This document shows positions 42,191 through 61,793 of a stretch of DNA of 64,000 nucleotides, one piece after another. The notes beneath the pieces were generated by a model that saw only the letters and a list, made by a program, of their open reading frames with translations, had not been told where the DNA came from and searched no databases. Position numbers and translations under genes: made by a program. Positions within the stretch are counted from its first letter, which is position 1; each line of letters starts with the position of its first letter. Source of the DNA: an uncultured archaeon (lineage in GTDB: Archaea; Asgardarchaeota; Lokiarchaeia; Sigyniarchaeales; SOKP01); NCBI GenBank assembly GCA_964486045.1, contig CAZALK010000008.1:96001-160000 (forward strand), read 5' to 3'.

Positions 42191-42314
42191 CTTTTTTTCC
42201 TTTTTTTGAATTATTTCAAATTATTTTAAATTTTATTCGTTAAGACAAGATCCCAATCTTTATATTCTGGCGCTTTTGTAATTTTAATTAATAAAAAATT
42301 AATAGGTAAAAATT

Positions 42315-42863
42315 ATGAGTAATGAAGAAAAAAAGCAGATCAATGTAAGAGATTGGATTACGCTTAGTACAGTCATGATAGGAGCTGTTTTAACGATTTT
42401 GGCTCTAATTTGGCAACTTCCTCCTACAACTGGGGGAATTGGAACCGTAACGTTTCTTCTACTGCTTTCATTTATTCTCTTTGTGAATTCAGTCAGCGCA
42501 AATTCAAAAGCCAATTATGAAGCTAATTTAAGAATGGTAAATGAAAAACGTGTAGACCGGTTTGTCTCATTCGCGGAATACACATTTGGGTTAGCTTTCA
42601 CACTAGTTATCTTTGCTTTCGCGATTCTTGGTTATAAATATTTATTGATATCAACCAATATCGGTCGTACAATTGTCACATTAATGCTTCCAATAACTTT
42701 CCTTGTAGTCGCATGGGCATTGATTTTTATTTATAATACTATAAATTACTCAGGAGTCCTTAGCGCTTTAAAAAGCTTAAAAAGAAACATTTGGATTCTT
42801 CTAGAATTTATTTGTTTATTGTTTATCCTCGGTGATTTTTTCGAAATTTTTTCGATTCCTTAA
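42315..42863 (+). CDS. Conserved membrane protein (about 5 TM)
   Basis: Hydrophobic 182-aa ORF with an oligo-T tract after the stop. Confidence 0.75.
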   Translation: MSNEEKKQINVRDWITLSTVMIGAVLTILALIWQLPPTTGGIGTVTFLLLLSFILFVNSVSANSKANYEANLRMVNEKRVDRFVSFAEYTFGLAFTLVIFAFAILGYKYLLISTNIGRTIVTLMLPITFLVVAWALIFIYNTINYSGVLSALKSLKRNIWILLEFICLLFILGDFFEIFSIP

Positions 42864-43152
42864 TCTTTTTTTTTTTTAATCCTTGGATTTCCACTAAATT
42901 TGAAAACATAATAGAGTATAATTTTCTTAATTATGGTTATTAGTATGACATAGAAGATGTATTTTTTCTGCCAATAGAAAGAATAAATAGATTTTCATAA
43001 GCTTAAGAATTAAATATTGTTTTCCCCTATCAATTTATAAATTAGGTTATTAAAAAAAGATCTAATTTATTAGTAGAACTTTAGCGTTTAGATATATACA
43101 ACATTTCTATAATTTTAAAATAAAAATTAAAAAAAATTAGACGTGATAAATA

Positions 43153-43761
43153 ATGGGACGTGGTGGAGCAGTTTTAGGGATAATAGGAATAGTTTTAGCT
43201 GCTGGAGCTGGTGGGTTTGCATTTGTGGGGTGGAATGGCCAAAACATCGCTAATTCAGAGATTAATAATTTGACAAATGAGCTTAATAATTTGACGGACG
43301 AACTAAATAATTTGTCGAGGATTATTGTTGTAGGAACATGGAATACGCTTGAAGACAATCTAAATTTTGCACCTCATAATTCACAAAATGATTGGCTTTT
43401 AGAATTTGGAGAAAATAACGTGAGTAATATTGATTATTTTTCTACTACGAACAATACTCGTATTACACTATTAAAGCCTGGTTGGTATCGAATTCACCTC
43501 TCTGTGTTATTGATGAATATTAATCCTTCGAGTACTTATTGGATTAGGCTCTACGTTAATGGTACGATGACAAATTATATGGCTCGTCATGAGACATCAG
43601 CAGCTAGTCCAATTTTTCATCATATTGATGTATCTGCATTTGTATATTGTGATGCGTTAAATTATATCGAAATTAATGGATATTCTACTTTTGATAATTT
43701 TGATGTAGCAGCCTCTGACGATAAATTTAATCAACTAACGATTGAGTATCTAGATATTTAG
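43153..43761 (+). CDS. Membrane-anchored protein with coiled-coil stalk and putative C1q/TNF/BclA-C-like beta domain
   Basis: N-terminal TM; heptad repeats (INNLTNE LNNLTDE LNNLS); TRITLLKPGWYRIHLS strand motif; fold is inferred. Confidence 0.7.
   Translation: MGRGGAVLGIIGIVLAAGAGGFAFVGWNGQNIANSEINNLTNELNNLTDELNNLSRIIVVGTWNTLEDNLNFAPHNSQNDWLLEFGENNVSNIDYFSTTNNTRITLLKPGWYRIHLSVLLMNINPSSTYWIRLYVNGTMTNYMARHETSAASPIFHHIDVSAFVYCDALNYIEINGYSTFDNFDVAASDDKFNQLTIEYLDI
43261..43317 (+). repeat. 21-bp heptad-coding tandem repeat (about 2.7 copies)
   Basis: attaataatttgacaaatgag / cttaataatttgacggacgaa / ctaaataatttgtcg. Confidence 0.75.
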
Positions 43762-43902
43762 TGGAAGATTTTTAATACTTAACTCTTTTTTTTTTCAATT
43801 CTTCATAAGCAGGGATTTCCATCTCAGAAAGTTTAAAAATTAAATAAATAATTTAATATCTAGTAAACGAAAATTAAGAAATTGAGTAAAATAGTTAGTT
43901 GA

Positions 43903-44784
43903 GTGAAAATGATCGCTAAACAGAAATTTGGTAACACCGGACATATGAGTACCAGAATTATTTTTGGAGCTGCGGCGCTCAGTAATGTTACACAAGCTGA
44001 AGCAGATCAAACATTTGAAGTACTTCTTAAGTTTGGAATAAATCATATCGACACTGCTGCGGGTTATGGGGAGTCAGAGTTACGAATCGGTCCTTGGATG
44101 GAAAAACATCGCAATAAATTCTTCCTTGCTACAAAAGTATTTAGGCGTTCCTATCAAGAAGCCCTTGATCAGATACATAGTTCACTTGAACGAATGCGTG
44201 TATCTTCAATCGACTTAATTCAATTTCATAATTTGACATCTCCTAATAGCTGGAAAAAAGTAATGGGTGAAGATGGAGCCTTAAAGGCCGCCGTTGAAGC
44301 CCGTGAACAAGGAGTGGTAAAAAACATTGGTGTAACAGGGCACGGATATACTGTAGCTGCCATGCATAAACAAAGCTTAGAGCATTTTGAATTTGATACG
44401 GTTCTATTACCATACAACTACATGATGGTACAAAATTCGGAGTATGCTGCAGATTTTGAAAGCCTTTTGAAACTATGTAAGGAACGAAATGTGGCAGTTC
44501 AGACAATAAAATCTCTCGCACGCCGTCCTTGGGGTGGGAGCAAAAGGATCCGAACCACGTGGTACGAACCTTTTGAGGATCAGGTTGATATAGACCGTGC
44601 AGTTCATTGGGTTTTAAAAAAAGAAGGAATTTTCCTCAATACAAGCGGTGATATTCATATTTTGCCCAAAATACTTGATGCTGCCAGTCGTTTCAATATC
44701 GGACCCCCCGAAGAGGAAATGCAGGAAAAAGCTACTCAGCTAGAGATGAAACCAATATTTGATGGAAGATCCTTAATTTTATAA
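43903..44784 (+). CDS. Aldo/keto reductase
   Basis: [23 protein letters not shown]....IDLIQFH, IGVTGH. Confidence 0.93.
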
Positions 44785-44974
44785 TGAGTAATACTTTTTT
44801 TTAGCCCATTAAATGAGAGTTTTATTTACCTTCTAAGAGTTTTATACAGTTTAAAACAACTGGAAGAAGTAGACATTCATAAAATTAAATTTCTTAATAG
44901 CAATAAAATCATCAATTCTCTTGTAAGAAGAAAGAAAAAAAGAAAAAAAAGAGTTAAGGGTTAAAAATCTTATG

Positions 44975-45532
44975 CTAAATAGCTACAAACTCAATCGTTA
45001 GTTGATTAAACAAATCGTCAGCACGAACAAAAAAGTTATTATCTCCTAATAAAGACTCTCCGTTAATTTCTATATAATTTGTACCATTACTATATACAAA
45101 CGCAAATGAATCAACAGAATGGTATTGGGAATTCATTGCTAATGATGTCTCATAATAATCTAAAAAAAATTCGGTAATACCATCTTTTAATAATTTTATC
45201 GTATAAATACTAGCAGGATTGATATCCATCAATACCATAGAGAGGTGGATTCGATACCAACCAGGTTTTAATAAAGTAATACGAGTATTAGTGTTTGAAA
45301 CAGAGATAAAGTTAGGATTACTCAAGCTATTGTCTCCAAATTCTATAAGCCAATTATCTAGCGCATTATGAGGGGGATAACCTTGATTGTCCGCAAGCGA
45401 ATCCCATACTCCCACAACGATAGTCATATTATTAGTGGTATTTTGACCGTTCCACACTACAAATGTAAATCCTATTGCTCCAGCGGCTAAGATTATCCCT
45501 ATAACCCCTAAAACTGCTCCACCACGTCCCAT
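44975..45532 (-). CDS. Paralogue of 43153-43761 lacking the coiled-coil stalk
   Basis: Same MGRGGAVLG start, TRITLLKPGWYRIHLS and FNQLTIE motifs. Confidence 0.75.
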   Translation of the reverse strand: MGRGGAVLGVIGIILAAGAIGFTFVVWNGQNTTNNMTIVVGVWDSLADNQGYPPHNALDNWLIEFGDNSLSNPNFISVSNTNTRITLLKPGWYRIHLSMVLMDINPASIYTIKLLKDGITEFFLDYYETSLAMNSQYHSVDSFAFVYSNGTNYIEINGESLLGDNNFFVRADDLFNQLTIEFVAI

Positions 45533-45840
45533 TATTTATCACTCATAATTTTTTTTTAATTTCATTTTTTAAATATTAGTTAAGAATTGGATTATATTTC
45601 TAAATATTTTAAAATTATACTAATAAATTAGAACTTTTTTAGAAAAAAGTTATGAAATAAAGCTAAATTCAGCTTCTATGACGAACAAACTTTAACGATT
45701 AAACAGAGCACATTTAATAAAGTTTAATATCATTACGAATCAAAACCTTATTTTTAACCTACATCAAAAATACTATTATCAAATTTAGGTCAAGTCATGA
45801 TTGTGAAACTATCGAGATCTTCAGCAATTTCATTCAAAGA

Positions 45841-46146
45841 TCACGAAAGATTTTGAAAAGAAATTAAATCCATCTGAATTGATCTATGGTTAATATTTGA
45901 GACTAGGTCTTCAAGATCAGGGAACTCAAAAGGGAAGATGTTTTCAAAAGCTCTTTTTAACAATTCAACGTACTTCTTCTTGTCATATTTGTGCTTTTTA
46001 TCATCAAATAAGTCTGAAAGGATAACCTTTTTTTCAGGAAAACTTGGATCCGCATCGGCATTAAGAATAATATATCTTACGTTTTTACCTGCTGATGCAA
46101 TAACACCAGAGCGTTCTAACTGTCTTGCGGCAACTGCCTGGTAACT
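45841..46146 (-). pseudogene. polB2: Orphan 3' fragment of a polB2 gene (101 codons plus stop, no start)
   Basis: Translates SYQAVAARQLERSGVIASAGKNVRYIILNADADPSFPEKK...QMDLISFQNLS*; 83/98 aa identical by hand alignment to the C-terminus of 56904-59327; in-frame TAA seven codons upstream. Confidence 0.9.
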
Positions 46147-46711
46147 AGTTTTCCCTTCTCTAAGTTAATCTGAGTTTAGGTTTTGCGAAGAAAAACTTAT
46201 GTAATAAACCCTCGAATGCTTTCCTCTAAAATAATACTGTGCCTTTTATAAGAGGGAGAAATAGAAAAGAAGTGCAAGGAAAAAAAGCTAAAAACTTGGA
46301 ATTGCTTAAAGATAATTAAAATAAAATCACGAGATTATCTTGACTTTTTTCTTCAATATTCTGAGTAAAATAAGAGAGAAAAAAAAAATGCTCGGGAGTT
46401 TGTTCAGCTGCGGGTGGGATAACTATAATCATAACACCATTCGATAAATATTTTAATATGCGTTTATCAATTGCATGGATCTTAATAAACTCAAGAAATT
46501 ATCTTTGGCCAAAATAACCATCATTAAACAAAATGAGCTATTCAATGCAAATAGTAAAAGGTACAGAGCTTTTAGGGGAAAACTGTGACAATATTCTCAA
46601 ATGTATTAAAAAAATAGAAGAACCGTATTATAAGACAGAAACTCTATCAAGTTAAATTATTCCCTAATAGTTAAAAGATGATTTCAACACCCTCTATAAT
46701 ATCTAGATTTA

Positions 46712-48769
46712 CTATTTTATTGAAGCCATGAATTTCAAAATAGTATCCATAATAGGAAGAGAGTTACAAATTATTCCAATTCTTTTAGCCCGAAAATCAA
46801 AGGCTTTCCTTCCAATAGGTGCGAGGTATGGATAATTGGAGATAATTATTACTTCATCTCCAGCCAGTATTGCATTAAATTTAACATTTTTACTCAATTC
46901 AAGGAAATTACAATTTTCACATTCTTTTGTTATCATTTCTAATTTTCTTATCCCCTCTTCCCATTGAATTGAGCTTTTTATAAGTTCCGTCTTATTTAAT
47001 AATATAGAGAAAGAAGGGATCTCTTCTAGGTGTGATTGAAATATTGGACCAATTCTTTTCTGACTTAGCTTTTCAGTAATTAATTGGAATGGCGCTTGTA
47101 TCTCTCTCATAGCATCTATTAGTATATCTTCATGTTCATAATCATATAATAATGATATACATTCTATATTCACCAAAGTGTTAATTTTTTCTTTGATTTC
47201 ATATAGTAAACCATTTGTACTCTCTATATTCTCGTTTAATATAAAAAATTCAAGGTCCTCAATTTTTTTTTCAAAAAAATTGATAATATTAATTCTGTAA
47301 TCGGACAAATTATTACAATAGACTTGAGTGGATTTTGCTAAGTATTTGTTTAAAACTTTTTTTCTATCAAATGAATCAGGTAAAAAATCGATAACAAATT
47401 GCAAAAGGCTTAAAGGTGTCTTTCCGCCCTCTAAATAAATGTTTGGAGTAATTAAACCCTCCTCGTTGTAATTATAACCAAGGAATGATAAACAATTGTA
47501 AAAGACTTTGTTGTTATCAATGATTAAAAAATTTGCATCAATCATATTATCCGATATAGTAAAAAATACTCTATTTTTATCTTTTCTTTCTAGTCCAGAA
47601 GATACTCCCAGTCTAAACTCCTTGATCTTTTCACGCTGTTCGCTAGGTGAGATCTCTTCTACACCCCCCCAAATAAACGTAATAGGTACTTCATTTTGAC
47701 TAGATTCATATATAATACTCTGAAGAAATGATAAATTGTTTAAGTTTAAATTATCAGAACAGATAACAATAAAATCTTGTGCATTTTTAACGTGTTCAAT
47801 AATAAGATTTTTTACTTCTAAATTTTGATATTTAAATACTATTTTATTTACACTTTCAATTCGTTCTTTTAAAATTTTAAAATCTTTTTTTATTCTATCA
47901 AACCTATCCTCTAACAATATTTGAAGGCTCAAATTCTCTTCAAGATTATTAAAAGAGTTAATTTCTTCCTGTAAAAAGTTAAGGTTGAATAGAATTTGGG
48001 TTATAAATTTTTTATTTGACAAAATAATCGGTGTTTCAAGAGTTAAATCTTCTTCTATTTCTTCTGATTCCATAAGTTTTGATTCAAAAGCTTTCTGCCA
48101 ATATTTTTGGACGACTCTGGGGAATATATCAAAATCCAGATTAAATAAAATACCTTCTTCCTTTTTAATTGGAATATATAATTTATCTCGATGTAAGGGA
48201 TATAAGAAATTAATTTTTTCGACATTTTCTAAATCTCTAACTCTTGATTTAACACATTGAGTATATTTTAGTAAAGAATAACTATATATATGTTGAAATG
48301 TCTCTGAAGGTGAAGATTTTAAATCAATGAAATTCGTTTTATCAGGATTAGGTGTCTTTAAATAATCATTAACATCATTTTGAATAAAGAGTTCCCCCCC
48401 AATTTTTTCTTGAAGAATTATTACGGGATATTTATAGACAGTAGTATCAACATCCAAAAATTCATCTAGTTTATCTTTTTCAACATATTCAATAATCTTT
48501 TCGCTAAGTGTTACTAATCCACTATTTAAATCAATATGGATTAATCCTGAATATATTAATGGTGTTAATATATAATTCATAATATGTTTTCCAACATTAA
48601 AGGCTTTAACTATGTTTATTAGTGAATTATCTTTACTTATTAATTTTAAAACTAATTTCTCAAGATGAGAAAGCATCTTACTTTTACGAATCACAATTTC
48701 ACATTTTTCCATTTGAATTGGAACAGTAATAACATCATCTTTTTTAACCTCCAGATTTTCCTCAGACAT
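46712..48769 (-). CDS. mkoB: Mokosh type I MkoB-like protein: N-terminal wHTH-like region and two degenerate PLD-like domains
   Basis: Starts 1 nt after the kinase-helicase stop; 'AQDFIVICS', 'VPITFIWG', 'IDANFLIIDNNKVFYNCLSFL' and 'KFNAILAGDEVIIISNYPYL' follow the PLD layout but lack HxK. Confidence 0.62.
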   Translation of the reverse strand: MSEENLEVKKDDVITVPIQMEKCEIVIRKSKMLSHLEKLVLKLISKDNSLINIVKAFNVGKHIMNYILTPLIYSGLIHIDLNSGLVTLSEKIIEYVEKDKLDEFLDVDTTVYKYPVIILQEKIGGELFIQNDVNDYLKTPNPDKTNFIDLKSSPSETFQHIYSYSLLKYTQCVKSRVRDLENVEKINFLYPLHRDKLYIPIKKEEGILFNLDFDIFPRVVQKYWQKAFESKLMESEEIEEDLTLETPIILSNKKFITQILFNLNFLQEEINSFNNLEENLSLQILLEDRFDRIKKDFKILKERIESVNKIVFKYQNLEVKNLIIEHVKNAQDFIVICSDNLNLNNLSFLQSIIYESSQNEVPITFIWGGVEEISPSEQREKIKEFRLGVSSGLERKDKNRVFFTISDNMIDANFLIIDNNKVFYNCLSFLGYNYNEEGLITPNIYLEGGKTPLSLLQFVIDFLPDSFDRKKVLNKYLAKSTQVYCNNLSDYRINIINFFEKKIEDLEFFILNENIESTNGLLYEIKEKINTLVNIECISLLYDYEHEDILIDAMREIQAPFQLITEKLSQKRIGPIFQSHLEEIPSFSILLNKTELIKSSIQWEEGIRKLEMITKECENCNFLELSKNVKFNAILAGDEVIIISNYPYLAPIGRKAFDFRAKRIGIICNSLPIMDTILKFMASIK

Positions 48770-48770
48770 T

Positions 48771-51700
48771 TTAATATGGAACCTCGTCGTGTGAGATTAT
48801 TTTTCCTTCTTTTTGAAAAAAGACTGCCACCTTACTAAATTTTTCCATAATTGGATTTCTACGATGATTTAAACACATTTTTAAATCACCTACAATTATT
48901 TCTACTTTTCTCGCTCTTGAGAGCATTACATTTAGTCTTTGAGGATCAGGAATAAAACCCCAAGCTGATCTGATTCCTTCTTTATTGTTACTTCGAACAA
49001 GTGATATAATCACTAAATCTGCCTCTTGACCCTGAAAACTATCAACAGTATAACAAGAATTTTTAATATTTATCCCCCCCAAGTTTGGAAGGTTGTTTGG
49101 TAAGTGAGTCTTTAAAACATTTACTTGCTCATTATAAGGGCTTAAAATAGCCAAGGAGAATTGGATATACTTCTTATTAACTCTAATTTTTTTTAATATT
49201 CTATTAATTAATTTAACTTCAGAAATGTTGTAAAAATCTGTACCAGCCCGTTTTTCTCCATAGATTCTTTCATTTTTTGTATTGATCCAAATTAATTGTT
49301 CATTTGACATCATAGTTGGTTCTAAAATTAAATCATCTATTTCATGAATTTCTTGTCTAAAAGCTCTGTCATAGAAAATTGTTGAAATCATTTTACTAAT
49401 TTTTGAAGGAAGTCTATGTTGGCCTATGAGTGTATTACAAGATCTCCTTTCATCAGCAGAATCATATGAAGGGCTTATTTTTTTAAATCGTTCGAACATA
49501 GATTGGAAGATTTTTACTTCTCTAATTGTTAACTTTCTAAATTCTAAGAAATCTCTTTCATTAAAGGTTATTTCTTCTTTAGATTCCTCTTCTATTTCAT
49601 CTAATTCTTCATTGATTAGTTCAATAATATCATTTAGTTTAAATGGAGGGAGTTGGTTTTGATCTCCAATTAGGACCCACTTATTCCCTAGCTGCAAAGG
49701 TCGGAATAATTCAGAAGGATATGTTTTAGCAGCCTCCTCGATTATTACTAAATCAAAATTAGGTCTTGATTCCAGTTTACTCAAATCATTAGACGTACTA
49801 GTACAGAAAACTAAGTTTGAACTCTCTCTAATACTATCTGTCCATTCACGACTTGGTGCTTTACCTTCGTATTTTATTATGTTTTCAATTTCGGCTAAAA
49901 TGTCATCATATTTTTTAAGATTAGGATTCCATTTTTCAATATTCTCTAACATTTTAATAGCCATTTGTTTAGGAAAATGCTTAAAGGCTATTGATCCTGG
50001 CGGATAATTACGTTCTCTAAATGGATTAATTAGTCGAACAATTTTAGGTTTTGGATTAATGTTTAATTCCTTGCACATGTCATAAGTCTTCTCTAGAAGG
50101 TCATCTAAAGCCGCATGCTCTTTACTTGAGACTAGAATCCTTTTATAAGGGTCTCTTTCAAGAGTTAATCTAATTAATTCCTTTGCAGACCATGTTTTTC
50201 CCGTTCCTGGAGGTCCTTGAAGAAGGAATATTGGAAAAGTGTAGAAAATAAAATTTACGATATCACTCTTATTGTCTTTCAAAAAATATTGATGTATCGC
50301 AGCTGGATTTAAAATCGCATCAATTAAATAATCTTTATCTTCTAAATTTTGAATAGTCATAAATTTCCTTTTTAATAGATGCAATGTTGGTTTTAAATCC
50401 CAAAAACGCAAATAACCATTTAAAGAAGGACTATCATTTTTTCTAACTTCTTCCCATTTTACAACAATATTGAAATCATCAGGTTCATCAATAATTTCAA
50501 TAAATTTCCATTTTCTTCGTTCTTTAAACCTTTGTTTTAAATCTGGTGAATCTGTTAGTTCTACAGTTTGAGTTTGAGAATTTCTTAAGACTTGTATGAA
50601 CCGGGTCCTTTCAGCTTTGTTAAAAATGTTTATACTAATTTGTCGTTTACTTTTTTTTGGACTCTCTTTATCGAATGAATCGTTTATAAGTTCATATTCG
50701 AATATGTATCTTTTTTCAATATTTTGCTCTACTTTAGTAATAAGTTTTAATGCTTCTAACCATCTTTTCTTATCTAGTTCATAATCTGATGGTTCTTCAT
50801 CAATAGTTCTTATTTGTGTTAAAGCATTTGCAAATATCCGATCCCAAGTAGAATATGATTTTTCTTTAAGATCTTGCCAATATAACTCATTTACTTTACA
50901 GACACAAATATCATTTTTCAATCCAAAACTTCTCTCTTCATTTTTATTTAATAAACTTACTATTGCAATTTTTCTATTATTACGACCCCTCTGAAATTTA
51001 TACTTTCCATTTTTACCAATTGCCCATAAGGGCCAATCTCTATTATTCGTTAAATAAAAAGATAATTCTGAAAATTCATTTTTTAAAAAAGCATCTGGAT
51101 ATTCTCGAATACCTTGAATATTTACATCAACCTTCCGAGCAATCCAGTTGAGAAAATGACTATCTCGGTCTATATTGAAGTATATTGGTAATTTAGGTGT
51201 TGTAATTGTGAGATATTTAAGTTCGTTCACAAAATCTCTAATCTTTTCTACAAATTCATCAATGCTTTCAAATCTGTCTTCGTGATTCAATTCGGTTGCT
51301 TTTAAAATTATTTCTTTTTCTTGTTGTAATCCCTCTTGAAAATGTATATTATCACGGATTTCATTGTATAATCTAGCTCTATCTGAAAACTCAGTGTCTT
51401 CATATTCAATCATATCTAAATCAAAAATTAGAAAAGCCATTACTAATCCTAAAGAAAAAATGTCTGATTTAAAAGTCTCCATCTCTAAGCACTCAGGTGC
51501 TCTAAAAAAATGCAAGTTATTTTGAATAATATTTTTTGTAATCTCATCAGAGATTAGATTAGATATTGAATATAAATAAATACTCCAGTTAAAATCACCT
51601 AATCTAAAGATATGATCTTCACCTTCTCGATAAGCTTCCCTGTTAAAATAAACCGTATCAAGAGAGATGTTTCTATGTAGGAGTCCTGCGTTATGAATCG

Positions 51701-52160
51701 CAAGTAATCCCTCTGATAATTTTAAAATTCCTTCCCAAATTTTTTTTTTTGAAAGATTTGAATTCTTTAATTGATCAAATAGTTCGATATCTTCATTCTC
51801 CTTTTTAGATAAGAGAATCTCCCTTAAACTTGAACCTCCTGCCTCAGTTATTAAAATAAAACAATTCTCCTCCTTATCGTACTCACCATCAATTAATTTT
51901 AGTAATGTATTTCCTCTAGAAATATTAATTGCTCTTTGATTTAAAGAAATTTCATAATGCCATAGATATTGAGCTAACTCTTGAATACGAGGGTCCTCTT
52001 TAACGTTAATTTTTTTTAATATAACTCTCTGTTGTAGACCACGATCTTCGGCGATATATTGATTTATTTCAATCTTATCACTAAAAGGGATCGCAATATT
52101 GCCTGTAATTTCTTCAATAATTCTATATCTTGTTTTCCATGAATCATAAATTGAGGTCAT
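48771..52160 (-). CDS. mkoA: Mokosh type I MkoA-like protein: N-terminal Ser/Thr kinase-like domain fused to a UPF1/DNA2-like SF1 helicase
   Basis: Kinase: VILKK, HRNISLDTV, LGDFNWS, APE, SDIFSLG. Helicase: QGPPGTGKT, IIEEAAK, LIGDQNQLPP, QHRLP, ILSPY..Q, TVDSFQGQEAD, RLNVMLSRAR. Confidence 0.8.
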   Translation of the reverse strand: MTSIYDSWKTRYRIIEEITGNIAIPFSDKIEINQYIAEDRGLQQRVILKKINVKEDPRIQELAQYLWHYEISLNQRAINISRGNTLLKLIDGEYDKEENCFILITEAGGSSLREILLSKKENEDIELFDQLKNSNLSKKKIWEGILKLSEGLLAIHNAGLLHRNISLDTVYFNREAYREGEDHIFRLGDFNWSIYLYSISNLISDEITKNIIQNNLHFFRAPECLEMETFKSDIFSLGLVMAFLIFDLDMIEYEDTEFSDRARLYNEIRDNIHFQEGLQQEKEIILKATELNHEDRFESIDEFVEKIRDFVNELKYLTITTPKLPIYFNIDRDSHFLNWIARKVDVNIQGIREYPDAFLKNEFSELSFYLTNNRDWPLWAIGKNGKYKFQRGRNNRKIAIVSLLNKNEERSFGLKNDICVCKVNELYWQDLKEKSYSTWDRIFANALTQIRTIDEEPSDYELDKKRWLEALKLITKVEQNIEKRYIFEYELINDSFDKESPKKSKRQISINIFNKAERTRFIQVLRNSQTQTVELTDSPDLKQRFKERRKWKFIEIIDEPDDFNIVVKWEEVRKNDSPSLNGYLRFWDLKPTLHLLKRKFMTIQNLEDKDYLIDAILNPAAIHQYFLKDNKSDIVNFIFYTFPIFLLQGPPGTGKTWSAKELIRLTLERDPYKRILVSSKEHAALDDLLEKTYDMCKELNINPKPKIVRLINPFRERNYPPGSIAFKHFPKQMAIKMLENIEKWNPNLKKYDDILAEIENIIKYEGKAPSREWTDSIRESSNLVFCTSTSNDLSKLESRPNFDLVIIEEAAKTYPSELFRPLQLGNKWVLIGDQNQLPPFKLNDIIELINEELDEIEEESKEEITFNERDFLEFRKLTIREVKIFQSMFERFKKISPSYDSADERRSCNTLIGQHRLPSKISKMISTIFYDRAFRQEIHEIDDLILEPTMMSNEQLIWINTKNERIYGEKRAGTDFYNISEVKLINRILKKIRVNKKYIQFSLAILSPYNEQVNVLKTHLPNNLPNLGGINIKNSCYTVDSFQGQEADLVIISLVRSNNKEGIRSAWGFIPDPQRLNVMLSRARKVEIIVGDLKMCLNHRRNPIMEKFSKVAVFFQKEGKIISHDEVPY

Positions 52161-52451
52161 AATTATCCTTTTTTTGTCTCTAATAAGTATTAATATTTGT
52201 TTTGTATTTCAGCTGTATTTTATTCGTTTTTCGACTTTAAAAACCTTAGCTTAATTTTTGGTATTTGGTGTTGGTAATATATGAAATGTTGGGTTTTAGA
52301 TCTCTAAGCACAAAACCATAGCCATTCAAGCCTACGGCGCCTTCCTTAAAGTTATCCTTTCCTCCCGCCGCGTCTGTTGCGAGTTTAATAATTTGCTCGA
52401 TTCTCATCTCTTAAAGATAAACAAAGTAACCCATCAATTTAAATTTATGGA

Positions 52452-55331
52452 TTGACATTGATTAACGATTTATTAAAATTCTTCTATACTGAACCAAGCG
52501 ATTTAGACTATTCTCCTGGTAATGAGATGACGACAGCATTTATTTATGACGAAATTCGAGAAATTGGAGATAACATTTTTACATCTAATATAGATCCTAA
52601 ATTTTATAAAGAGACCGCTGAAATATTCTTAAAAGACATTGATACTCTATTACAAGATACTCCGGATGGGAAAAGATTAGTATGGGAAGAATCATTAGTG
52701 GCACATCTACCCGCTTTGGACGAGAATGGTGATCAAATTATTTTAAGACCTTCAATGCTACCTTCTAAAGATACCGGCTTCTTTATCTGGGATGAAGGAA
52801 AAAAGAAATCCTCTGACGAATTAACAGATCAATGGGGAAACGAAGGCGGATGGGGTTATTTTCAGGGAAAAGGCTCCCCATTTATTTTTGTTCACGATGA
52901 CGATGGCAATAATGGAATTATGCCCGTAAGTTTAATGGGTGATACCATGCCTGAAGGAATAAATCTAGGATATAAGAGTTCAGGTACAGGAGATGTGATA
53001 AAAGGAGTGTATCTAAGCGACGAAGGAGGAGGACTTTTACTATCACAAATTGGGCTCATATCTGAAACGTTCTATGCTAAGGGTAAGGAATGGTTCAAAG
53101 ATCCATTAGCCATCCCAAATCACATTAACCCGAATTATGAAATAGAAATAAATGGTAAGGTTGTCATGGTTCCTAGACTAATTTATTACAGATCTTCTAC
53201 GAGACAGACTGGTAACCATATCCATGGATTCCTTCAGAAGGTAGTATCCACTATGGTACCTCGGAACACGTACAAACCGCTCATAAAGGCTGAAGTTTCT
53301 CTAACAAGTAGACTGAAAAGCATCTTAAAAAGTAGCGAGTTTTCTTATCGGTTTGAATTCGATAGGGATTTCTCATCTAAGCAATTATTCGAAATACTTA
53401 GTTTACTTCCTACTGTTGCTCAGAAAGGCTCTTCAGGTGCGATTGATTCAACTGCTTTAAATTTACTTAAATATTTTAATGGTCGATTTATAGGTAAAAA
53501 AACATTGACGAATTTTATTCCAGGTCCAGACAAAATTGAAATTAATGACATGATTAGGGCGTTAGAATTCACTGCCTTAGAATTAAAGCGATTAGCATGG
53601 AAAAATAGTGATAATACTTTCATCGGGGCAAATCAATATCTTAAAGAATGGTTAATGTTAATCTATAATAAGATTATGACATACGATAAAACTCAACCCA
53701 ATGCTGACACTAGCATAATACGAGAGCAAGAAAAACTAACAGACCTCAGAGATAACCATGCCACAACTTATTCTGAACTAGTTACCTCAATTGAGCCAGA
53801 AAAATGTACTCCAAAGGAGTGGAATATGGCCATTAGTATTTTTGAGTCAGCATCAAAGTTATTTGGTCATGGGACAGTCAGATTAATGCTTTCAAATATG
53901 GTGAATTTCAATAAAGATAAGAGCATAAAAATATATAATACTCCTCCAAAAGGTGAACTCGCAGCAATTCATAATCATATAGGTTTTGCTTCTATGGGCA
54001 ATTTGCCAATTTCTGATTATACAACCATCGGTAACTTTTACGAACATATGGTTGGAATATTTCTTCTAGATTCTCATGTTATCATACCGAGGACTGATAT
54101 TATAATTAATTCAAAAGAAAACTCATACATATTTCCTTTCGGACCAATAACATTTAATAATCCGACCGAAATTGTCGAAGCCAATACCATAGGTTCATTT
54201 TCTTGGTCTTTAGCTAAAAAGATTTCTGGCGAATTCAAAATATATATGAATAGCAAAACGAAGATAGATAGTTTTATATCCTCACAAACAAATCTATATA
54301 ACGCCTTTTCTGATTTATTAGATGAACAAATAATAGATCAGAGACTCTATAACAACTTCAACACCCCTGAAAAGACTTGGAAGGAAAGGAAAGGAATGAA
54401 TATCTGGCTTTCTAGAAGAACCAAACAAGTCGCAAGGACAGAGCTCTTTTCTATTCAATCCGGTGGCTTAAGAAACAATATTGATGAATTTAGGGCATTA
54501 TTTGATTATTTAACTGACATACCATTTAATGTCCTTAAGGCGGGAGCTACTACTACATTCTCTCTATCACTAACTCAGCCATTTTTAGAAAATATAGACT
54601 ATTTGAGTTGGCCAAAGGACGCCATTGCCAAACTTATCGAGGATTCTTATCAACGTTTCAAAGATGAAAATATTGAAAACTTTTTTGACCAAACTAGAAA
54701 GATAATTTCAGAATTTGGAACCGACGGTAAGAAAGTGCTAATTCAACCTATATTTTCTACAAACGATCCAGATCTAGGATATCAACACCTAATATCTGCT
54801 GAAAATCTCGCTAAAAAGAGGTGGTTACCAAGAGAAAAAACGGTATTTGAAGTTGACCTTACCAAACCCGAGGAAGCACATTATGTTTTAGAACATATAG
54901 CTCATCTTATGGCTACATTTAATATCGCTTTTGTATTTAGAGAGTGGATTGACCTAGATACTGACCCCCGTTATAAAGATATTTATTTGAGGACAGAAAA
55001 AATGAAGAAATATTTTGAAGATAATCAAGAAGTAATTACAGCGGTTGATTTTGAGGGTTATTTACGCATTGACGAAATCTATTCAGGGTCTTCTTCTGGT
55101 GAACAAGTCTTACTTAATGGCTATACCACAAATTCAGAGGGAAAAACATTTTTTGATGCTGAAGTTTTTAAGACATACGATGAATGGGACAAAGTATGGA
55201 AACATAAAATGGGTTTCTTTTCGATTTCATTTGGTAAATTTAATTTTAACGCATTAATGTCTGGCACTTCTGATCAAGCGAATACCCTAAGAGAGATATT
55301 AGATCCAACAGGAACAAGATTTAGAAATTAG
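52452..55331 (+). CDS. Large orphan protein (959 aa), possibly N-terminally truncated
   Basis: Long open frame; TTG start lies three codons after an in-frame TAA with no evident RBS; first ATG at 52527; no recognisable motif. Confidence 0.7.
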   Translation: MTLINDLLKFFYTEPSDLDYSPGNEMTTAFIYDEIREIGDNIFTSNIDPKFYKETAEIFLKDIDTLLQDTPDGKRLVWEESLVAHLPALDENGDQIILRPSMLPSKDTGFFIWDEGKKKSSDELTDQWGNEGGWGYFQGKGSPFIFVHDDDGNNGIMPVSLMGDTMPEGINLGYKSSGTGDVIKGVYLSDEGGGLLLSQIGLISETFYAKGKEWFKDPLAIPNHINPNYEIEINGKVVMVPRLIYYRSSTRQTGNHIHGFLQKVVSTMVPRNTYKPLIKAEVSLTSRLKSILKSSEFSYRFEFDRDFSSKQLFEILSLLPTVAQKGSSGAIDSTALNLLKYFNGRFIGKKTLTNFIPGPDKIEINDMIRALEFTALELKRLAWKNSDNTFIGANQYLKEWLMLIYNKIMTYDKTQPNADTSIIREQEKLTDLRDNHATTYSELVTSIEPEKCTPKEWNMAISIFESASKLFGHGTVRLMLSNMVNFNKDKSIKIYNTPPKGELAAIHNHIGFASMGNLPISDYTTIGNFYEHMVGIFLLDSHVIIPRTDIIINSKENSYIFPFGPITFNNPTEIVEANTIGSFSWSLAKKISGEFKIYMNSKTKIDSFISSQTNLYNAFSDLLDEQIIDQRLYNNFNTPEKTWKERKGMNIWLSRRTKQVARTELFSIQSGGLRNNIDEFRALFDYLTDIPFNVLKAGATTTFSLSLTQPFLENIDYLSWPKDAIAKLIEDSYQRFKDENIENFFDQTRKIISEFGTDGKKVLIQPIFSTNDPDLGYQHLISAENLAKKRWLPREKTVFEVDLTKPEEAHYVLEHIAHLMATFNIAFVFREWIDLDTDPRYKDIYLRTEKMKKYFEDNQEVITAVDFEGYLRIDEIYSGSSSGEQVLLNGYTTNSEGKTFFDAEVFKTYDEWDKVWKHKMGFFSISFGKFNFNALMSGTSDQANTLREILDPTGTRFRN

Positions 55332-56599
55332 TGGATTTTTATCCCTTTTTTTTTTAATTTTTGAATAATGAGATTACCACTTTCTGTAAGGTTGTTTTCA
55401 TCAATAAATAAAGTTTTTAGATATTTTAGATTTAGCAAGTTTTTTGGTAAATCTCTAATTTTATTTCCCTTTAAATTAAGAAGTTCGAGATTTTCAAGTT
55501 TACCTATAGATTCAGTTATTTTTTTTATCCGATTCTTTTGTAGGTGCAATGTCTTTAAATTTCTTAACAAAAAGACGTTAACGGGTATTTGAGTTAAAAG
55601 ATTATTACCTAAATACAGATATTCAAGTCTTTTCAATTCGATAATTGAATCTGGAATTTCTTCAACCATATTACCCAGAGAAAATAATTTAAGCCTATTT
55701 AGAGCACCTATTCTTTTTGGGACAAATTTTAGACAAGCACTTCGGATTCTTAACTTTTCAATCTTGTATAGGTCAAATATTGAGTTTGGAAATTCCTCCA
55801 AAATACTACTTTCCACTGATAATTCTTGTAAATTCTTTAATTTTACAAATGTTTTCGGTATTGATGGTATTTTATCTCCAAAATAACGTAAAACTTGTAA
55901 ATTTTTAAAGTTAGAGACTGAACTCGGGAGGGGTTTTGCGGGTTTATTATACCAATATAACAGTAGTTTAATTACGGACTTATCTTTTACCATAAACTGT
56001 TGACTCTCATCCAAGCCGTCACCAGTGTCAAATTCCTCCCAATTTACCTTTTGGTTTATAGGCTCATCTGTAAACTTTTCAAGCTCAAGCAACGATTCAG
56101 CTTCCACAGGATTTAAAATAGACATAAAATATTGATCACGGTCTAAAAAATCGACATAATGTTCGCTGACTAAAAATTTAATAACTGAATCATTCCCTGA
56201 AGCGAGACGTGTTGCGATTTCTCCTTTAAAGACTTGTTTTGCGATTGCATCACCGGCTTTAGTGAGAGCGTGAAGTAGTGGAAATGCCAAATTTCGATGG
56301 AGCAGTCGTGTGTCATAATTGTTCTCATACCATACTTGTAAATTTGAACAGTGTGCCCAAAACTCAGTTCTAGGATCTATATAGACATCTTCTCGCTCAC
56401 CAGGGTGTTCTAGGGTATTATCAAGTTTTTCAGTGATTTCATCAAGAGACTTAAGTTCTTCAAGCGATTTAACTTTGTTAATTGGGATGTTTAAAAGTAA
56501 GAATTTGCATTGAATGAATCTCTTACCAGCAACATAAATAATTGTTCGAACACCCTCGACTTTTAGCGTTAAATATCTATTAATTCTAAATTCGCTCAT
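55328..56599 (-). CDS. Leucine-rich repeat protein with N-terminal Lokiarchaeal FWxHCSNLQ domain
   Basis: FWAHCSNLQVWYE; C-terminal LRRs (LEYLYLGNNLLTQIP, LKTLHLQKNRIKKI, LELLNLKGNKIRDLP); ATG 56599 with GAGGAG RBS. Confidence 0.9.
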   Translation of the reverse strand: MSEFRINRYLTLKVEGVRTIIYVAGKRFIQCKFLLLNIPINKVKSLEELKSLDEITEKLDNTLEHPGEREDVYIDPRTEFWAHCSNLQVWYENNYDTRLLHRNLAFPLLHALTKAGDAIAKQVFKGEIATRLASGNDSVIKFLVSEHYVDFLDRDQYFMSILNPVEAESLLELEKFTDEPINQKVNWEEFDTGDGLDESQQFMVKDKSVIKLLLYWYNKPAKPLPSSVSNFKNLQVLRYFGDKIPSIPKTFVKLKNLQELSVESSILEEFPNSIFDLYKIEKLRIRSACLKFVPKRIGALNRLKLFSLGNMVEEIPDSIIELKRLEYLYLGNNLLTQIPVNVFLLRNLKTLHLQKNRIKKITESIGKLENLELLNLKGNKIRDLPKNLLNLKYLKTLFIDENNLTESGNLIIQKLKKKGIKIH

Positions 56600-56903
56600 G
56601 ATCTCCTCAATATAAAGAAAAGTTGTCTTTATATAATTAATCGAAATCAAGACATAAAAAAATTATGTGTAAGTATATTTTTTGATTTTATAAATACCAA
56701 AAGAGCCAATATTAAATTTTTCTTTCTTATTGAAAATGTTATAAAAAAGCCATTAAAAGAGTTCAGACTAAAGGAAAAATACAAATTAACCAAAACTTGA
56801 CTAATCATTAAAATTATAGGAGAGATAATCTCAGAAATTTTTTTTATTTTTTTTAAATTTAACTTAAAATTCACTACCCAATGCACTTAATCTTTACATA
56901 ACT

Positions 56904-59327
56904 TTAAGTTTTTTTACGGGCGGTTTGAAATGACAGCAAATCCATTTGAGTTGATTTTTGGTTGAAGTTTGCTACTACTTCTTCAAGATCGGGAAAGCTA
57001 AATGGAAAAATGCTCTCAAAAGCCCTTTTTAATAGTTCTGTGTACTTCTTTTTATCATACTGGTGCTTCTTTGGATCATACAAATCCGAAAGGATCACTT
57101 TTTTTTCGGGAAAACTGGGGTCTGCTTCAGCGTTAAGGATAATATACCTTACATTCTTTCCCGCAGAAGCAATTACACCCGAGCGTTCTAGCTGTCTAGC
57201 CGCTACTGCTTGGTAAGAGTTCACCTTGTATTGTGAAGGTCGTCTTGAAATCTTTTGTTTTATCGTAAGCTCATCCCCCGATACATTACCACTTGTGATT
57301 TTGTTAATATATTCATAGAGCTTCTTTTTTGCTTCGGGAATTTTTTTCATAAACTCTTCGACGGAAACGACTCCTTGGAATACATCAAAAAAAGCATATT
57401 GGGCATCTTTGACGATCTTTGGTATATCTCTACGTCTCACCTCAACGCCTCTGACCTTTAGTTCTCCATTAGTTTTGATACCCCAATAATGAGTGAGGGC
57501 TGGAACGTTACGTTCGGCTCGAGAGGGCAGAAAAGCAATGACATTATAGCATCCATCCCAGCTCATCGGGACTCTAGTATGATCCGTTATTTCTTCAGCT
57601 ATCTTCTTAGTTACTTTTTCAAACTCCTCGGGAGTTCTTCCTTTCGTGTCTTTCACATAGATTGAATCAACAATTCCGTGAATAATCTTGCACCCGTGAC
57701 TTCCAGCGATTTCAGCCGCACGCATTAAAAATTCTCGGGCAAATGCACACACTGTTTGGTGTGCCTCAATTTTACCAAAACGCGCATTTTTGAAGCCTAA
57801 ATAACCAAAACTTACTACAAGCACCCATTTTAAAGCGATATCTGTGAACTTGTATCGAAGATCATCGTGTGTTTTGTTATATGCTTTGCACTCTAAACGT
57901 TTTCTAAGGGGTAGACTAATCGATTTTGAGATAATTCCTTCTCTTTTGGAACAGATATGAAAACCTCCTCCTCCGGGTACTCTAATTCCCGTTCCATCAT
58001 CTTTGCAACATTTGCAGTTAATTGTTTCAGATGAAACGTTAAGATTGGCCATAATGGAAGGATACATTGATGAAAAATCGAGTTCTACAACTTGATCAAA
58101 GACTCCGATTATTGGCTCGAATATATGGCCTCCCCGGTCATTAACGATCAGATCCATGCCATTTCTAAATCCTTCAGGACTTTTCTTGAAAGGTGGAATA
58201 AGATGACCTAGCTTGTAGGCATTATAATATTGTATCGACTGAAGCGCACCTCCAATTGTTATTCTACATAGTCTCTGCATCGCTACTCGAGAAATCCTCG
58301 CAACTTCAATAATTCCTGGTATATTTCCTTCACTAAAGTGCAAACTCCCATAAGAAGATGTATCCATATGAAAACGACCAGTCAAATACACTTGCGTTTT
58401 AGAGCGACGCATTATTATCCCATATGACATATAATGATCTGAGTTTCCTGAAAGGTTAAAAATACAGTTTTTTAGCGGTGTTTTATTCCGAGAAAGGTAG
58501 AGATCCTTTGATACTCGATTCACTGATGCCCGAGCAACTAAGTATGGAAATACGAATTCGTCTCCTCCACTAGTTAATATAATATCAGGATCTAATTTCT
58601 CGATTACTTTACTAATCATTTTAATGGTTTCTGCTTCATCAGCTTCATCGATAAGAATCGTTCTTTTTCTCTGACCGTCTGCCCTTGGCACATTATTTTC
58701 ATCATTTTCAACAATGCTCACCTCTGCGTATACCAAACAGTCGTTAAAATATGATCTCATCCCATGTTGTTCAACTTTTATATCCAGCCATACAGATTTT
58801 AACGGAGGTAATTCATAAAATAGTTCTTCGTTGTCATCTTTTAAATCTAAGGATACCAGCTGCATTGAGTGACCATCAGCATTTTTCTTCTTTTTAGGTT
58901 TGACCTTGAAACTGCAAAAAGACATAGGAAAGAGATCATTTACGTAGAAATACATCTGAGCGATTGGAAGATCGGTGTTATATAACGTAAACAGCCCAAT
59001 CCCATCAATAGCTTTAATAGTTTTCTTAAATACTGAAGGCTTCACCACAGAGACTCCAAAGATTTTTGTCTTCTTATGGTCTTCTAGCTTCACATATTTT
59101 TCGCAGATTCGTACACCTTTAACGTCGTGATGGGATAAAAGAATAGTCTCTAGCCTCCTAAAATCGTTACCCATGTGTTTCTTTGGCACAGCAAAAAATT
59201 CGGGGCAGAAATCATGAAATATTTTTACAATCTTTTGCTCTTTTGCAGTTTTCACCCAAAGAATGACTCCATTGCCATGAGTGGAGACATCAAAAAGCCA
59301 ACCGTCAAATTGTTCTTGAAAGCTCAA
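56904..59327 (-). CDS. polB2: Archaeal family B DNA polymerase, PolB2 group (Dpo2-like)
   Basis: Motif A LDFSSMYPSI; motif B ALKWVLVVSFGYLG; motif C HGIVDS (PolB2-type); KVRGVEVRRRD; degenerate exonuclease motifs; C-terminal PIP box QMDLLSF. Confidence 0.92.
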   Translation of the reverse strand: MSFQEQFDGWLFDVSTHGNGVILWVKTAKEQKIVKIFHDFCPEFFAVPKKHMGNDFRRLETILLSHHDVKGVRICEKYVKLEDHKKTKIFGVSVVKPSVFKKTIKAIDGIGLFTLYNTDLPIAQMYFYVNDLFPMSFCSFKVKPKKKKNADGHSMQLVSLDLKDDNEELFYELPPLKSVWLDIKVEQHGMRSYFNDCLVYAEVSIVENDENNVPRADGQRKRTILIDEADEAETIKMISKVIEKLDPDIILTSGGDEFVFPYLVARASVNRVSKDLYLSRNKTPLKNCIFNLSGNSDHYMSYGIIMRRSKTQVYLTGRFHMDTSSYGSLHFSEGNIPGIIEVARISRVAMQRLCRITIGGALQSIQYYNAYKLGHLIPPFKKSPEGFRNGMDLIVNDRGGHIFEPIIGVFDQVVELDFSSMYPSIMANLNVSSETINCKCCKDDGTGIRVPGGGGFHICSKREGIISKSISLPLRKRLECKAYNKTHDDLRYKFTDIALKWVLVVSFGYLGFKNARFGKIEAHQTVCAFAREFLMRAAEIAGSHGCKIIHGIVDSIYVKDTKGRTPEEFEKVTKKIAEEITDHTRVPMSWDGCYNVIAFLPSRAERNVPALTHYWGIKTNGELKVRGVEVRRRDIPKIVKDAQYAFFDVFQGVVSVEEFMKKIPEAKKKLYEYINKITSGNVSGDELTIKQKISRRPSQYKVNSYQAVAARQLERSGVIASAGKNVRYIILNAEADPSFPEKKVILSDLYDPKKHQYDKKKYTELLKRAFESIFPFSFPDLEEVVANFNQKSTQMDLLSFQTARKKT

Positions 59328-59602
59328 TCTTTAGTCTTTCCTTTTATCATTTCTTCTAATTTATTTACTTTCTTTTCTAGCATCTCAATTTTCTTTTCTT
59401 GTTCTACGGCAAAAGAAAGGAACAATATTTCTGATAGCATTGGACGTGCGCTCATGCTGCCAGCATCTGCATGTATTCGAGCATAATTCATTAATTTATT
59501 AAATATTTTTTGTCCTTCAGGCCTTAAAGCTCTTTTAAAGCCTTTCCAGCTTTCAATCTCATGTTCTAACGCAGGCCTGAAAGAAGGTACAGTTCTTCCC
59601 AT
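59324..59602 (-). CDS. PolB2-associated small helical protein (arCOG07300-like)
   Basis: MGRTVPSFR...W..FKRALR...F..L...AR.HADAG; its stop overlaps the polB2 start (TTGA). Confidence 0.85.
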   Translation of the reverse strand: MGRTVPSFRPALEHEIESWKGFKRALRPEGQKIFNKLMNYARIHADAGSMSARPMLSEILFLSFAVEQEKKIEMLEKKVNKLEEMIKGKTKD

Positions 59603-60967: not shown

Positions 60968-61717
60968 CTAAATCCAACAATCTATCGTAGCATTTTTTAG
61001 AGGAATTTTCTTTTTTGATGTACGAGGCTTCCATTTTAATAACCGCTTTTCAGGCATGTAAGGATGCTGAAAGAGGGTGTATTCTGCATAACGTTCGTCA
61101 TCATTTATCATTACGAGCACACTCCCAAAATGAGAAAGAATTTTTCCCCCTTTTGGCCTGAAAAGAGAATGTTCATGTAAAGGTGCTGTTATAATAATGA
61201 GGGGATTTGTCTTCCAAAGGATCTTTCTAATCCCATCTAAGGTTCTTAGTAGATCTTCAAAAGTCTGTTTTTCGTAGGCCTCAAACAGAGTTGTAATTCC
61301 CGAGATCATCACAACTTTCACATCTTCAAGTATGGAAAGTTTGTTCTCTAAAATTTCAACCATTTGCTCCCAAGTGAAAGCTCTGCTTATGAGAATATTT
61401 TTCAAAACCTTTTGGGGGGACAGGTTTTGAGTAACTGCAAATTTACTTACATTATAAGGGTTAAATCGATTATTTCCATCGACAAATGCAACTTTGATAC
61501 CTTCTCCAAGTCCTCCATTACTAAACGCTTTTTGGGCAATAACGGCAGTTGTTAATAAAATATTTGTCGTTAATTTCTTGTCTCCATAAAGCAGATAGAC
61601 TAAATCTCGGTGAAATCCTCCGGAAAGCAACTCATCGAGAGTTTTATCTCCGCTTGAAATGAGAGGAGAATGAATATTCCTTTTGTACACCTTGAATCCT
61701 GAATCAAACGTCATCAT
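60968..61717 (-). CDS. RadA/RecA-fold protein with degenerate Walker A (PolB2-cassette component)
   Basis: SSGDKTLDELLSGGF; Walker A replaced by LYGDKKLTT; FVDGNNRFNPY; NILISRAFTWEQ; PKGGKILSH; PIP-like tail NATIDCWI; ATG 61717 preferred. Confidence 0.85.
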   Translation of the reverse strand: MMTFDSGFKVYKRNIHSPLISSGDKTLDELLSGGFHRDLVYLLYGDKKLTTNILLTTAVIAQKAFSNGGLGEGIKVAFVDGNNRFNPYNVSKFAVTQNLSPQKVLKNILISRAFTWEQMVEILENKLSILEDVKVVMISGITTLFEAYEKQTFEDLLRTLDGIRKILWKTNPLIIITAPLHEHSLFRPKGGKILSHFGSVLVMINDDERYAEYTLFQHPYMPEKRLLKWKPRTSKKKIPLKNATIDCWI

Positions 61718-61793
61718 ATGAAGAAACAATTCTTCAAAATAAAATAACAATACACCGACAATTTTCTGAAATTTATGGGTTTTGTCTAGAGTT

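Follow-up and report, generated by a model that had tools for sequence, protein, structure and literature searches.

A polB2 gene with a foreign last third, and its displaced native end beyond a cargo block, in a Lokiarchaeial genome

Two polB2 gene ends around a cargo block

We analysed a stretch of 64,000 nucleotides, hereafter the window, from an uncultured archaeon of the Lokiarchaeia (contig CAZALK010000008.1 of assembly GCA_964486045.1). The host genome is a 5.18-Mb metagenome-assembled genome (MAG, code G000) with a CheckM contamination of 7.8%, and the window corresponds to G000:C8:96001-160000. The window encodes the DNA polymerase gene polB2, followed by a block of cargo genes, namely a leucine-rich repeat (LRR) gene, a gene for a 957-aa protein and a Mokosh defence pair, beyond which lies a second copy of the polB2 3′ end. 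The elements that define the block are as follows.

56904-59327, minus strand: polB2, 807 aa (Pfam DNA_pol_B 7.9e-27, exonuclease domain 8.9e-11)
56904-57218, minus strand: copy B, the last ~100 codons of the in-gene polB2 end
45841-46146, minus strand: copy A, the displaced resident polB2 3′ end, start-less, codons 703-802 and the stop
46147-46651: spacer of 505 nt that separates the Mokosh cassette from the right joint

Read from 46146 to 45841, copy A comprises 101 codons and a stop that align to PolB2 residues 703-802. Its frame is intact, as the initial annotation had noted, but no start codon is present and an in-frame stop lies six codons upstream. The translations of copies A and B are identical at 83 of 101 positions (82%), including all of residues 1-30, and the nucleotide identity is 75-77%. 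The proportion of differing synonymous sites (pS) is 0.78-0.79 and thus saturated, that of nonsynonymous sites (pN) is 0.09-0.11, and the two copies are separated by about one substitution per site. A PCNA-interacting protein (PIP)-like tail, QMDL(L/I)SF, is kept in both. Saturated pS together with low pN indicates that both ends evolved inside working genes. In simulations, a neutral 101-codon frame stayed free of stops with P = 0.17 at 10% divergence and P = 0.04 at 20%. Because a neutral frame rarely stays open and the distance between the copies is so large, most of their divergence predates the displacement. These data support the view, put forward in the initial annotation against a recent duplication, that the two ends are old alleles, each selected separately within a working gene.

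The copies become homologous abruptly at the SYQAV codons, and they remain so as far as the stop codons. Identical runs at or near the repeat boundary measure only 6, 5, 6 and 10 nt, and there is no identical core. The palindrome aactagtt straddles the right joint (46146/46147); it has no counterpart at the block's opposite end, and nothing hints at a function. No terminal repeats beyond copies A and B, no terminal inverted repeats, no target-site duplications and no tRNA gene were found at the block, and the sequence contains no Ns. The spacer contains no open frame longer than 60 codons and shows no similarity to integrases or to other parts of the genome. In agreement with the initial annotation, which saw no recombinase inside the block, none was found among the Pfam matches of the island open reading frames, and a tblastn search of 45500-57300 with the five tyrosine recombinases of this genome returned nothing below E = 0.4. 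No homing endonuclease or its remnant was found in the block and spacer.

A chimeric polymerase in a resident genomic background

A search with copy A against 5.8 billion proteins led to P0002, the closest public allele, an 804-aa PolB2 encoded on an 89.5-kb (89,533-bp) Logan/ENA contig. The comparison with P0002 was made at the protein level, and the position of the breakpoint therefore comes from proteins only. It divides polB2 into the following parts.

57723-59327, minus strand: codons 1-535, resident part (96.4% identity to P0002, its sister in the segment tree with a support of 0.999)
57720-57866, minus strand: left (homologous) crossover interval, codons 488-536, at which the gene switches from native to foreign
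56904-57722, minus strand: codons 536-807 and the stop, foreign last third (72% and 80% identity to P0002; long branch)

Over residues 1-535 the window PolB2 and P0002 differ at 19 positions, and between residues 161 and 535 they are identical at 370 of 375. The identity is 72% over residues 536-702 and 80% over residues 703-807. Copy A, on the other hand, is 90-91% identical to the end of P0002, compared to 82% to copy B. The segment trees disagree in the same manner. In the tree of segment 2, P0002 lies among its expected relatives (90% identity to G013), whereas the window gene occupies a long branch far from P0002, with a best match anywhere of 76.6%. In the tree of segment 3, copy A is the sister of P0002 (0.83). 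The best match to the foreign part of polB2 among the 5.8 billion proteins is 79% identical; with no closer relative, no circulating lineage of an element is visible.

The residues exclusive to the window PolB2 and P0002 stop near position 487, and the first run of mismatches begins at 536. The stretch in between (~487-535) is invariant in all sequences and is the part of the gene most conserved in nucleotides within the genus (mean identity 0.83-0.86), which places the switch from native to foreign at 57720-57866. The foreign part of the gene thus extends 167 codons upstream of the start of the repeat, and a native version of codons 536-702 is absent from the entire host genome. Judged from sequence, these comparisons show that the window polB2 is an inter-lineage chimera with a foreign last third, and that this end comes from an unsampled lineage of the same clade. 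They also show a block with a homologous left joint, an apparently non-homologous right joint, a loss of codons ~536-702 and a native remnant. The insertion into polB2 with replacement of the gene end, as originally proposed, is thereby upheld, and the separate phylogenies of the gene parts that the proposal called for disagree. The proposal had left open whether polB2 serves as an attachment site or as a homology anchor. Since the foreign sequence in the gene covers a further 167 codons on the upstream side of the repeat, the anchor is the better fit; recurrent attachment finds no support.

The initial annotation also considered that copy A could be a decayed tandem paralogue, which would derive from an old duplication within the lineage. 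With 35 other genus species for comparison, copies A and B do form a clade (ultrafast bootstrap 100 and 93) and share a derived tail. Wider sampling, however, groups copy A with P0002 and not with copy B, and the sister genome, free of the cargo, encodes an intact polB2 that ends like copy A. A start-less fragment, moreover, could not have kept its pN/pS at 0.12 while accumulating about one substitution per site, in line with the frame simulation. We give this explanation next to no credence.

The genes flanking the block were compared with the P0002 contig and with other members of the genus.

59324-59602, minus strand: PPB2 (arCOG07300), the PolB2 partner, whose stop overlaps the polB2 start and whose product begins MGRTVPSF
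60968-61750, minus strand: RadA-like gene of the PolB2 cluster (Pfam Rad51 8.8e-16)
41567-42863, plus strand: g41567 (GyrI-like) and g42315, conserved neighbours that abut polB2 in relatives (synteny in at least 30 genus loci)

PolB2 has the motif C HGIVDS, and its best NCBIfam models are type B polymerase subfamilies with scores below their cut-offs. The association of PolB2 with PPB2 and iRadA, and the MGRT motif of PPB2, have been described (PMC11791011); the presence of a PPB2 partner with the MGRT start and of a RadA-like gene nearby thus upholds the label polB2.

The gene content of the P0002 contig was obtained from look-ups of protein clusters at 90% identity, so that adjacency there rests on cluster membership and not on coordinates. 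PPB2 is identical to its copy on this contig at 91 of 92 positions and g42315 at 177 of 182, and the contig also encodes homologues (at least 90% identity) of g40421, g60253 and g62023. On both sides, the flanks of the block are 97-99% identical to the P0002 contig, and segment 1 of polB2 has diverged to the same degree, which indicates that the flanks represent one genomic background. None of the block cargo was found on the P0002 contig at 90% identity or more. The partners that MkoA and MkoB have at this level sit on other contigs, and the LRR gene, the 957-aa gene, an aldo/keto reductase gene and two paralogues flanking the latter have no such partner anywhere in the public collection.

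These observations bear on the possibility that the locus is an assembly chimera of two strains co-occurring in the MAG. The host genome is a MAG with the contamination given above, the MAGs G019 and G063 hold polB2 contigs of two strains, and the left switch falls within conserved sequence, a setting in which assembly graphs can cross. The right joint, however, offers an assembler no shared sequence, and there are no Ns. Segment 1 carries 19 mismatches to P0002, the same divergence as both flanks, which argues against a chimera with the P0002 strain, and the gene order on both sides follows the synteny of the genus. We therefore consider such an artefact very improbable.

Across 38 polB2 loci from other species in the genus, PPB2 comes first, followed by polB2 and then by the convergent g42315 and g41567. 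The stop codons of polB2 and g42315 are 20-100 bp apart in 20 of these loci, compared to 14 kb in the window. Relatives therefore do show the predicted empty site, and the closest public genome lacks the cargo at 90% identity or more. Where the gap is occupied, it measures 0.5-2.9 kb and holds mostly metabolic genes and, in one case, an LRR gene, which does not fit the suggestion that variable anti-viral cargo is swapped at polB2. Nor was the idea of a recurrent breakpoint at SYQAV borne out: an internal polB2 fragment was found in none of the other genus genomes (54 searched, 44 with polB2). Second polB2 matches in G019 and G063 were considered as further cases and rejected, as they are contig-end pieces with a synteny of their own that represent a second strain in the bin. 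With the foreign part as the query, the matches listed for 400 Asgard genomes showed no evident polB2 fragment, the second matches in G073 and G075 being left uninspected.

Two further observations concern polB2 in the genus. The copy-A query (residues 703-802) had no match in 10 of the 54 species (G010, G011, G012, G020, G023, G056, G057, G060, G061 and G069), of which G060 has a contig-end polB2 piece covering residues 536-722. Since some of the genomes without a match are 96-99% complete, polB2 looks dispensable. In G022, polB2 (L046, G022:C17:7354-9601) matches residues 1-541 and 632-802 with ~100 nt between them, an internal deletion or a break near the position at which the window gene switches alleles.

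Cargo of the block and neighbouring genes

The cargo between the two gene ends comprises the genes named above and one further open frame.

56647-56886, minus strand: 79-codon open frame after the polB2 stop, probably no gene
55328-56599, minus strand: LRR gene, 423 aa from an ATG behind a GAGGAG site (Pfam LRR_14 1.2e-21)
52458-55331, plus strand: 957-aa gene, function unassigned by searches
46652-52260, minus strand: Mokosh type I cassette of 5.6 kb, consisting of mkoA and mkoB with 100 nt upstream and 60 nt downstream
48771-52160, minus strand: mkoA, 1129 aa, kinase and superfamily 1 helicase (PADLOC 1.5e-166 over residues 33-1110)
46712-48769, minus strand: mkoB (PADLOC 5.5e-21)

The translation of the 79-codon frame is of low complexity; it matched no family, and none of the loci contains a relative of it. 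The public record holds the exact call of the LRR gene. The 957-aa protein, noted initially as an orphan of 959 aa, had no match in Pfam, NCBIfam, PADLOC or the protein atlas. Its family comprises 74 representative clusters in 1.8 billion proteins; some members form the C-terminal part of fused proteins of 1600-3900 aa, and these long relatives have no Pfam match either. An AlphaFold2 model of the protein has a predicted local distance difference test score of 81, and a Foldseek search with this model against the PDB returned no match. The LRR and 957-aa genes are convergent, and the pair recurs in G005 (L078) and G124 (L080).

In the Mokosh pair, Pfam recognises Pkinase, AAA_11 and AAA_12, and the pair is conserved in G089, G020 and G008. 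Mokosh type I is known in Asgard archaea (PMC11291487), and both MkoA and MkoB align to the PADLOC models almost from end to end. Different from the known systems, the pair forms here a sharp-ended 5.6-kb cassette that occurs in at least three contexts; its anti-viral role is a predicted one. Among the loci compared (L085, L086, L090, L091, L088 and L089), the metagenome contigs L085, L086 and L090 are 92-96% identical to the cassette in nucleotides and have unrelated flanks on both sides. The homology ends sharply at both edges, and at least three genomic contexts can be distinguished. In one metagenome context the cassette lies between a full histidyl-tRNA synthetase (HisRS) gene and a 5′-truncated HisRS copy with 50% protein identity. 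The variant cassette L091 breaks off at MkoA residue 575, and for a more distant variant the host genome offers a clean empty site at C10:155261/155264. The sharp edges, the high identity in unrelated contexts and the clean empty site argue that the cassette moves on its own. The Mokosh pair is thus, by these comparisons, a separately mobile cassette that need not have entered with the rest of the block. Its GC content is 26-30%, against 31-40% around it, and the GC profile does not mark the ends of the island.

The three kinds of cargo originally listed are present between the copies. The designation of the block as a defence island held only in part. The Mokosh pair matches known families, but it is the sole PADLOC match, no second recognised defence family being found in the block, and the LRR and 957-aa genes match none, so that the label is generous.

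The resident-side flank beyond copy A (43053-45640) is made up as follows.

43909-44784, plus strand: aldo/keto reductase gene, located between the inverted paralogues g43153 (plus) and g44975 (minus)

The reductase is 82-85% identical to homologues of the genus encoded near polB2. Together with their upstream regions, g43153 (43053-43793) and g44975 (44943-45640) form an inverted repeat of 72-86% identity. Their products of 202 and 185 aa each have an N-terminal membrane anchor and a beta-rich domain, and a third copy is located on contig C22. We considered whether g44975, which lies beside copy A, could be a hidden recombinase and rejected this candidate, as it encodes a small membrane-anchored protein with a paralogue across the reductase gene. 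Elsewhere in the window, the plus strand contains an open frame of 3155 codons at 14621-24088.

Formation of the block and related footprints

The explanation that we prefer, at slightly less than an even chance, is that an 11.6-kb foreign segment recombined into the resident polB2 and that its right end was joined illegitimately in one step. Incoming DNA would have paired with the chromosome at the most conserved stretch of polB2, where a homologous crossover between codons 488 and 536 would have resolved its left end. The right end would then have been attached a few hundred bases deeper in polB2, beside resident codon 703 and without homology. In this process resident codons ~536-702, between anchor and joint, would have been deleted, and codons 703-802 would have been left as a dead fragment. 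The polymerase would have remained intact as a chimera, because the donor piece brought its own gene end with a PIP-like tail. The LRR gene, the 957-aa gene and the Mokosh cassette would have been gained with the segment, and the cargo was probably kept because a defence system is part of it. The Mokosh cassette, which has moved between Lokiarchaeial genomes in a history of its own, may have joined the block earlier or later than this event.

Homology-facilitated illegitimate recombination of this kind has been described in Acinetobacter, S. pneumoniae, P. stutzeri and E. coli (PMC3240628; PMC5361080, which refers to de Vries & Wackernagel 2002, Prudhomme 2002 and Meier & Wackernagel 2003). 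The process deletes recipient DNA between the anchor and the joint, and it has been proposed for displaced gene ends in type VI secretion system and Rhs loci (PMC5361080). The polB2 block resembles these cases in having one homologous anchor within a shared gene, one apparently non-homologous joint and a loss of recipient DNA between the two, as well as in the gain of foreign cargo and the old gene end orphaned downstream. Specifically, one junction lies in shared sequence (codons 488-536) and recipient codons 536-702 are gone; at the right junction the homology begins abruptly at 46146. The known cases are bacterial, mostly from the laboratory, with short inserts and near-identical anchors. 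The polB2 block, in contrast, has an Asgard host, an 11.6-kb insert and an anchor diverged by 15-25%, and is read from sequence only.

What favours one-step joining is that a single event would explain every feature, including the lack of a mobility gene, of an identical core and of a visible element lineage; on this ground we tentatively assign it not quite half of the total weight. Several points count against it. No surveyed relative has ~10 kb of accessory cargo behind polB2, as the donor would need. Pairing of sequences diverged by 20-25% and illegitimate joining would be two rare steps. The breakpoint was placed at the protein level, and the joints are known from the assembly alone. Finally, mobility genes accompany the footprint at two of its other sites in this genome, a tyrosine integrase at one and a LAGLIDADG/HINT gene at the other, which raises the prior for an element-borne gene end. 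These footprints emerged from a comparison of the genome with itself, in which three more genes have a 3′ end and a diverged, start-less copy of it downstream on the same strand, all three with saturated pS and low pN.

G000:C23:49447-60116 (L093): gene with a VWA domain, fragment 8 kb away, tyrosine integrase gene (L093 10647-11888) beside the fragment
G000:C15:87406-91385 (L094): DUF362 gene, 79-codon end 2.6 kb downstream, M28 peptidase gene in between
C8:60611-63556, outside the window: main PolB gene, 978 aa, fragment 6.2 kb away, LAGLIDADG/HINT gene after the stop

The two ends of the VWA gene are 97% identical in protein, with a pS of 0.77. The repeat boundary of the DUF362 gene has an identical run of 21 nt, and no recombinase is present at this footprint. 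The element at the main PolB gene (C8:54152-63556; L092 4153-13545) comprises a free-standing LAGLIDADG/HINT gene of 495 aa, four genes of unknown function and a displaced native-type end. Its endonuclease has homologues of 66-67% identity in G049 and G043; in G041 and G068 the site holds a different cargo of 2.4 kb and decayed fragments with in-frame stops, and in G022 it is empty. In four species the in-gene ends make up a cluster of their own, apart from the native-type ends and the fragments, and the element-type ends are without the native ...KKMDAFF tail. The closest public relatives of the main PolB are either 100% or at most 81% identical.

A decayed integrative or homing-type element that carried a polB2 end, from a core at ~codons 500-535 to the stop, would account for the block in a different manner. 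It would have entered by means of a recombinase, encoded by itself or acting in trans, or through a single crossover made by host recombination, leaving the full displaced codons ~536-807; a later deletion would have removed displaced codons 536-702 together with the right-hand site and the mobility gene and fixed the island. Such an element would account for the cargo directly behind the foreign gene end. The three other loci with the same footprint, saturated pS and low pN speak in its favour, as do the integrase beside the displaced fragment at the VWA gene and, at the main PolB gene, the LAGLIDADG/HINT gene and the recurrence of the element, with a shared element-type end, in at least five species. 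Parallels exist in e14 at icd/icdC (PMC13626634) and in the gene hybrids that mobile endonuclease ORFs (mORFs) create in fungal mitochondria (PMC3630166). The decayed element, however, requires a second event, the deletion; no recombinase remnant and no second genome with an element at polB2 were found; and no related foreign end exceeds 79% identity, unlike the ends of the main-PolB element, which cluster at 73-90%. We regard this explanation as possible but on balance unlikely.

The element e14 (and phage 21) resides in icd, with icdC as a C-terminal pseudogene (PMC13626634, citing Hill et al. 1989). The likeness to the polB2 block includes an insertion into a housekeeping gene's 3′ part, a substitute end whose differences are mostly silent, a native end that remains start-less at the far side and direct repeats of the 3′ end. 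The element e14 encodes an integrase of its own and excises, and its target gene is native on the upstream side of the core. The polB2 block, in contrast, has no recombinase, no identical core, 167 further foreign codons and no reuse of the site in the genomes searched. The mORF hybrids, known from Allomyces atp6 and from Glomus atp6, atp9, cox2 and nad3 (PMC3630166), share with the block a foreign C-terminus, cargo and a native C*-terminus that matches its sister-species counterpart, the inserted piece grouping elsewhere. These elements are ~1-2 kb long and contain an endonuclease, which the polB2 block does not have, whereas the main PolB of the host fits the type. By analogy, the main-PolB element matches both the mORF gene hybrids and e14 at icd.

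Transfer of islands through flanking homology is common, and the block could accordingly have been imported ready-made, as an insertion at codon 703 brought in by two-sided homologous recombination, with a left crossover at ~codon 510 and a right crossover in the first conserved codons of the displaced fragment. This would explain the mosaic upstream of the repeat and the mostly native copy A, and the first 30 codons of the repeat are indeed the best conserved. The right arm, however, would be shorter than 300 nt at 75-80% identity, and the pre-formed structure occurs in no lineage among the genomes searched. In addition, nothing at the start of copy A resembles a donor patch; the 10 positions at which it differs from P0002 are evenly spread. 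We consider such an import improbable.

Whichever way the foreign end arrived, the initial suggestion that polB2 physically ties a mutator locus to defence was not sustained. DNA-damage induction of the PolB2 cluster is documented in Sulfolobales only, and the same footprint occurs at three unrelated genes, so the link between the block and mutagenesis looks coincidental. The polB2 event is a single event of a known kind, with no dedicated docking site.

Four footprints in one genome, together with the recurrent case of the main PolB, make gene-end replacement look like a regular route of gene flow in these organisms, which bears on the reading of mosaic Asgard genomes and of the polymerase phylogenies built from them. 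A more general proposition, which we hold to be doubtful at present, is that Lokiarchaeial genomes repeatedly capture cargo by swapping the 3′ parts of conserved genes, both family-B polymerases included, with the retained native fragment as a downstream homology arm. If true, recombinase-free islands such as the polB2 block could spread between species by host recombination alone, and polymerases would arise as chimeras with a thumb and a PCNA-binding end from another lineage. For the study of defence systems, the locus offers a Mokosh pair that moves as a sharp-edged 5.6-kb cassette. The block itself would be the footprint of an Asgard archaeon gaining, from a relative diverged by ~25% and without a mobility gene, a defence system together with other cargo, and its main value lies in a clear inter-lineage polymerase chimera and in the view that it gives of Asgard gene flow.

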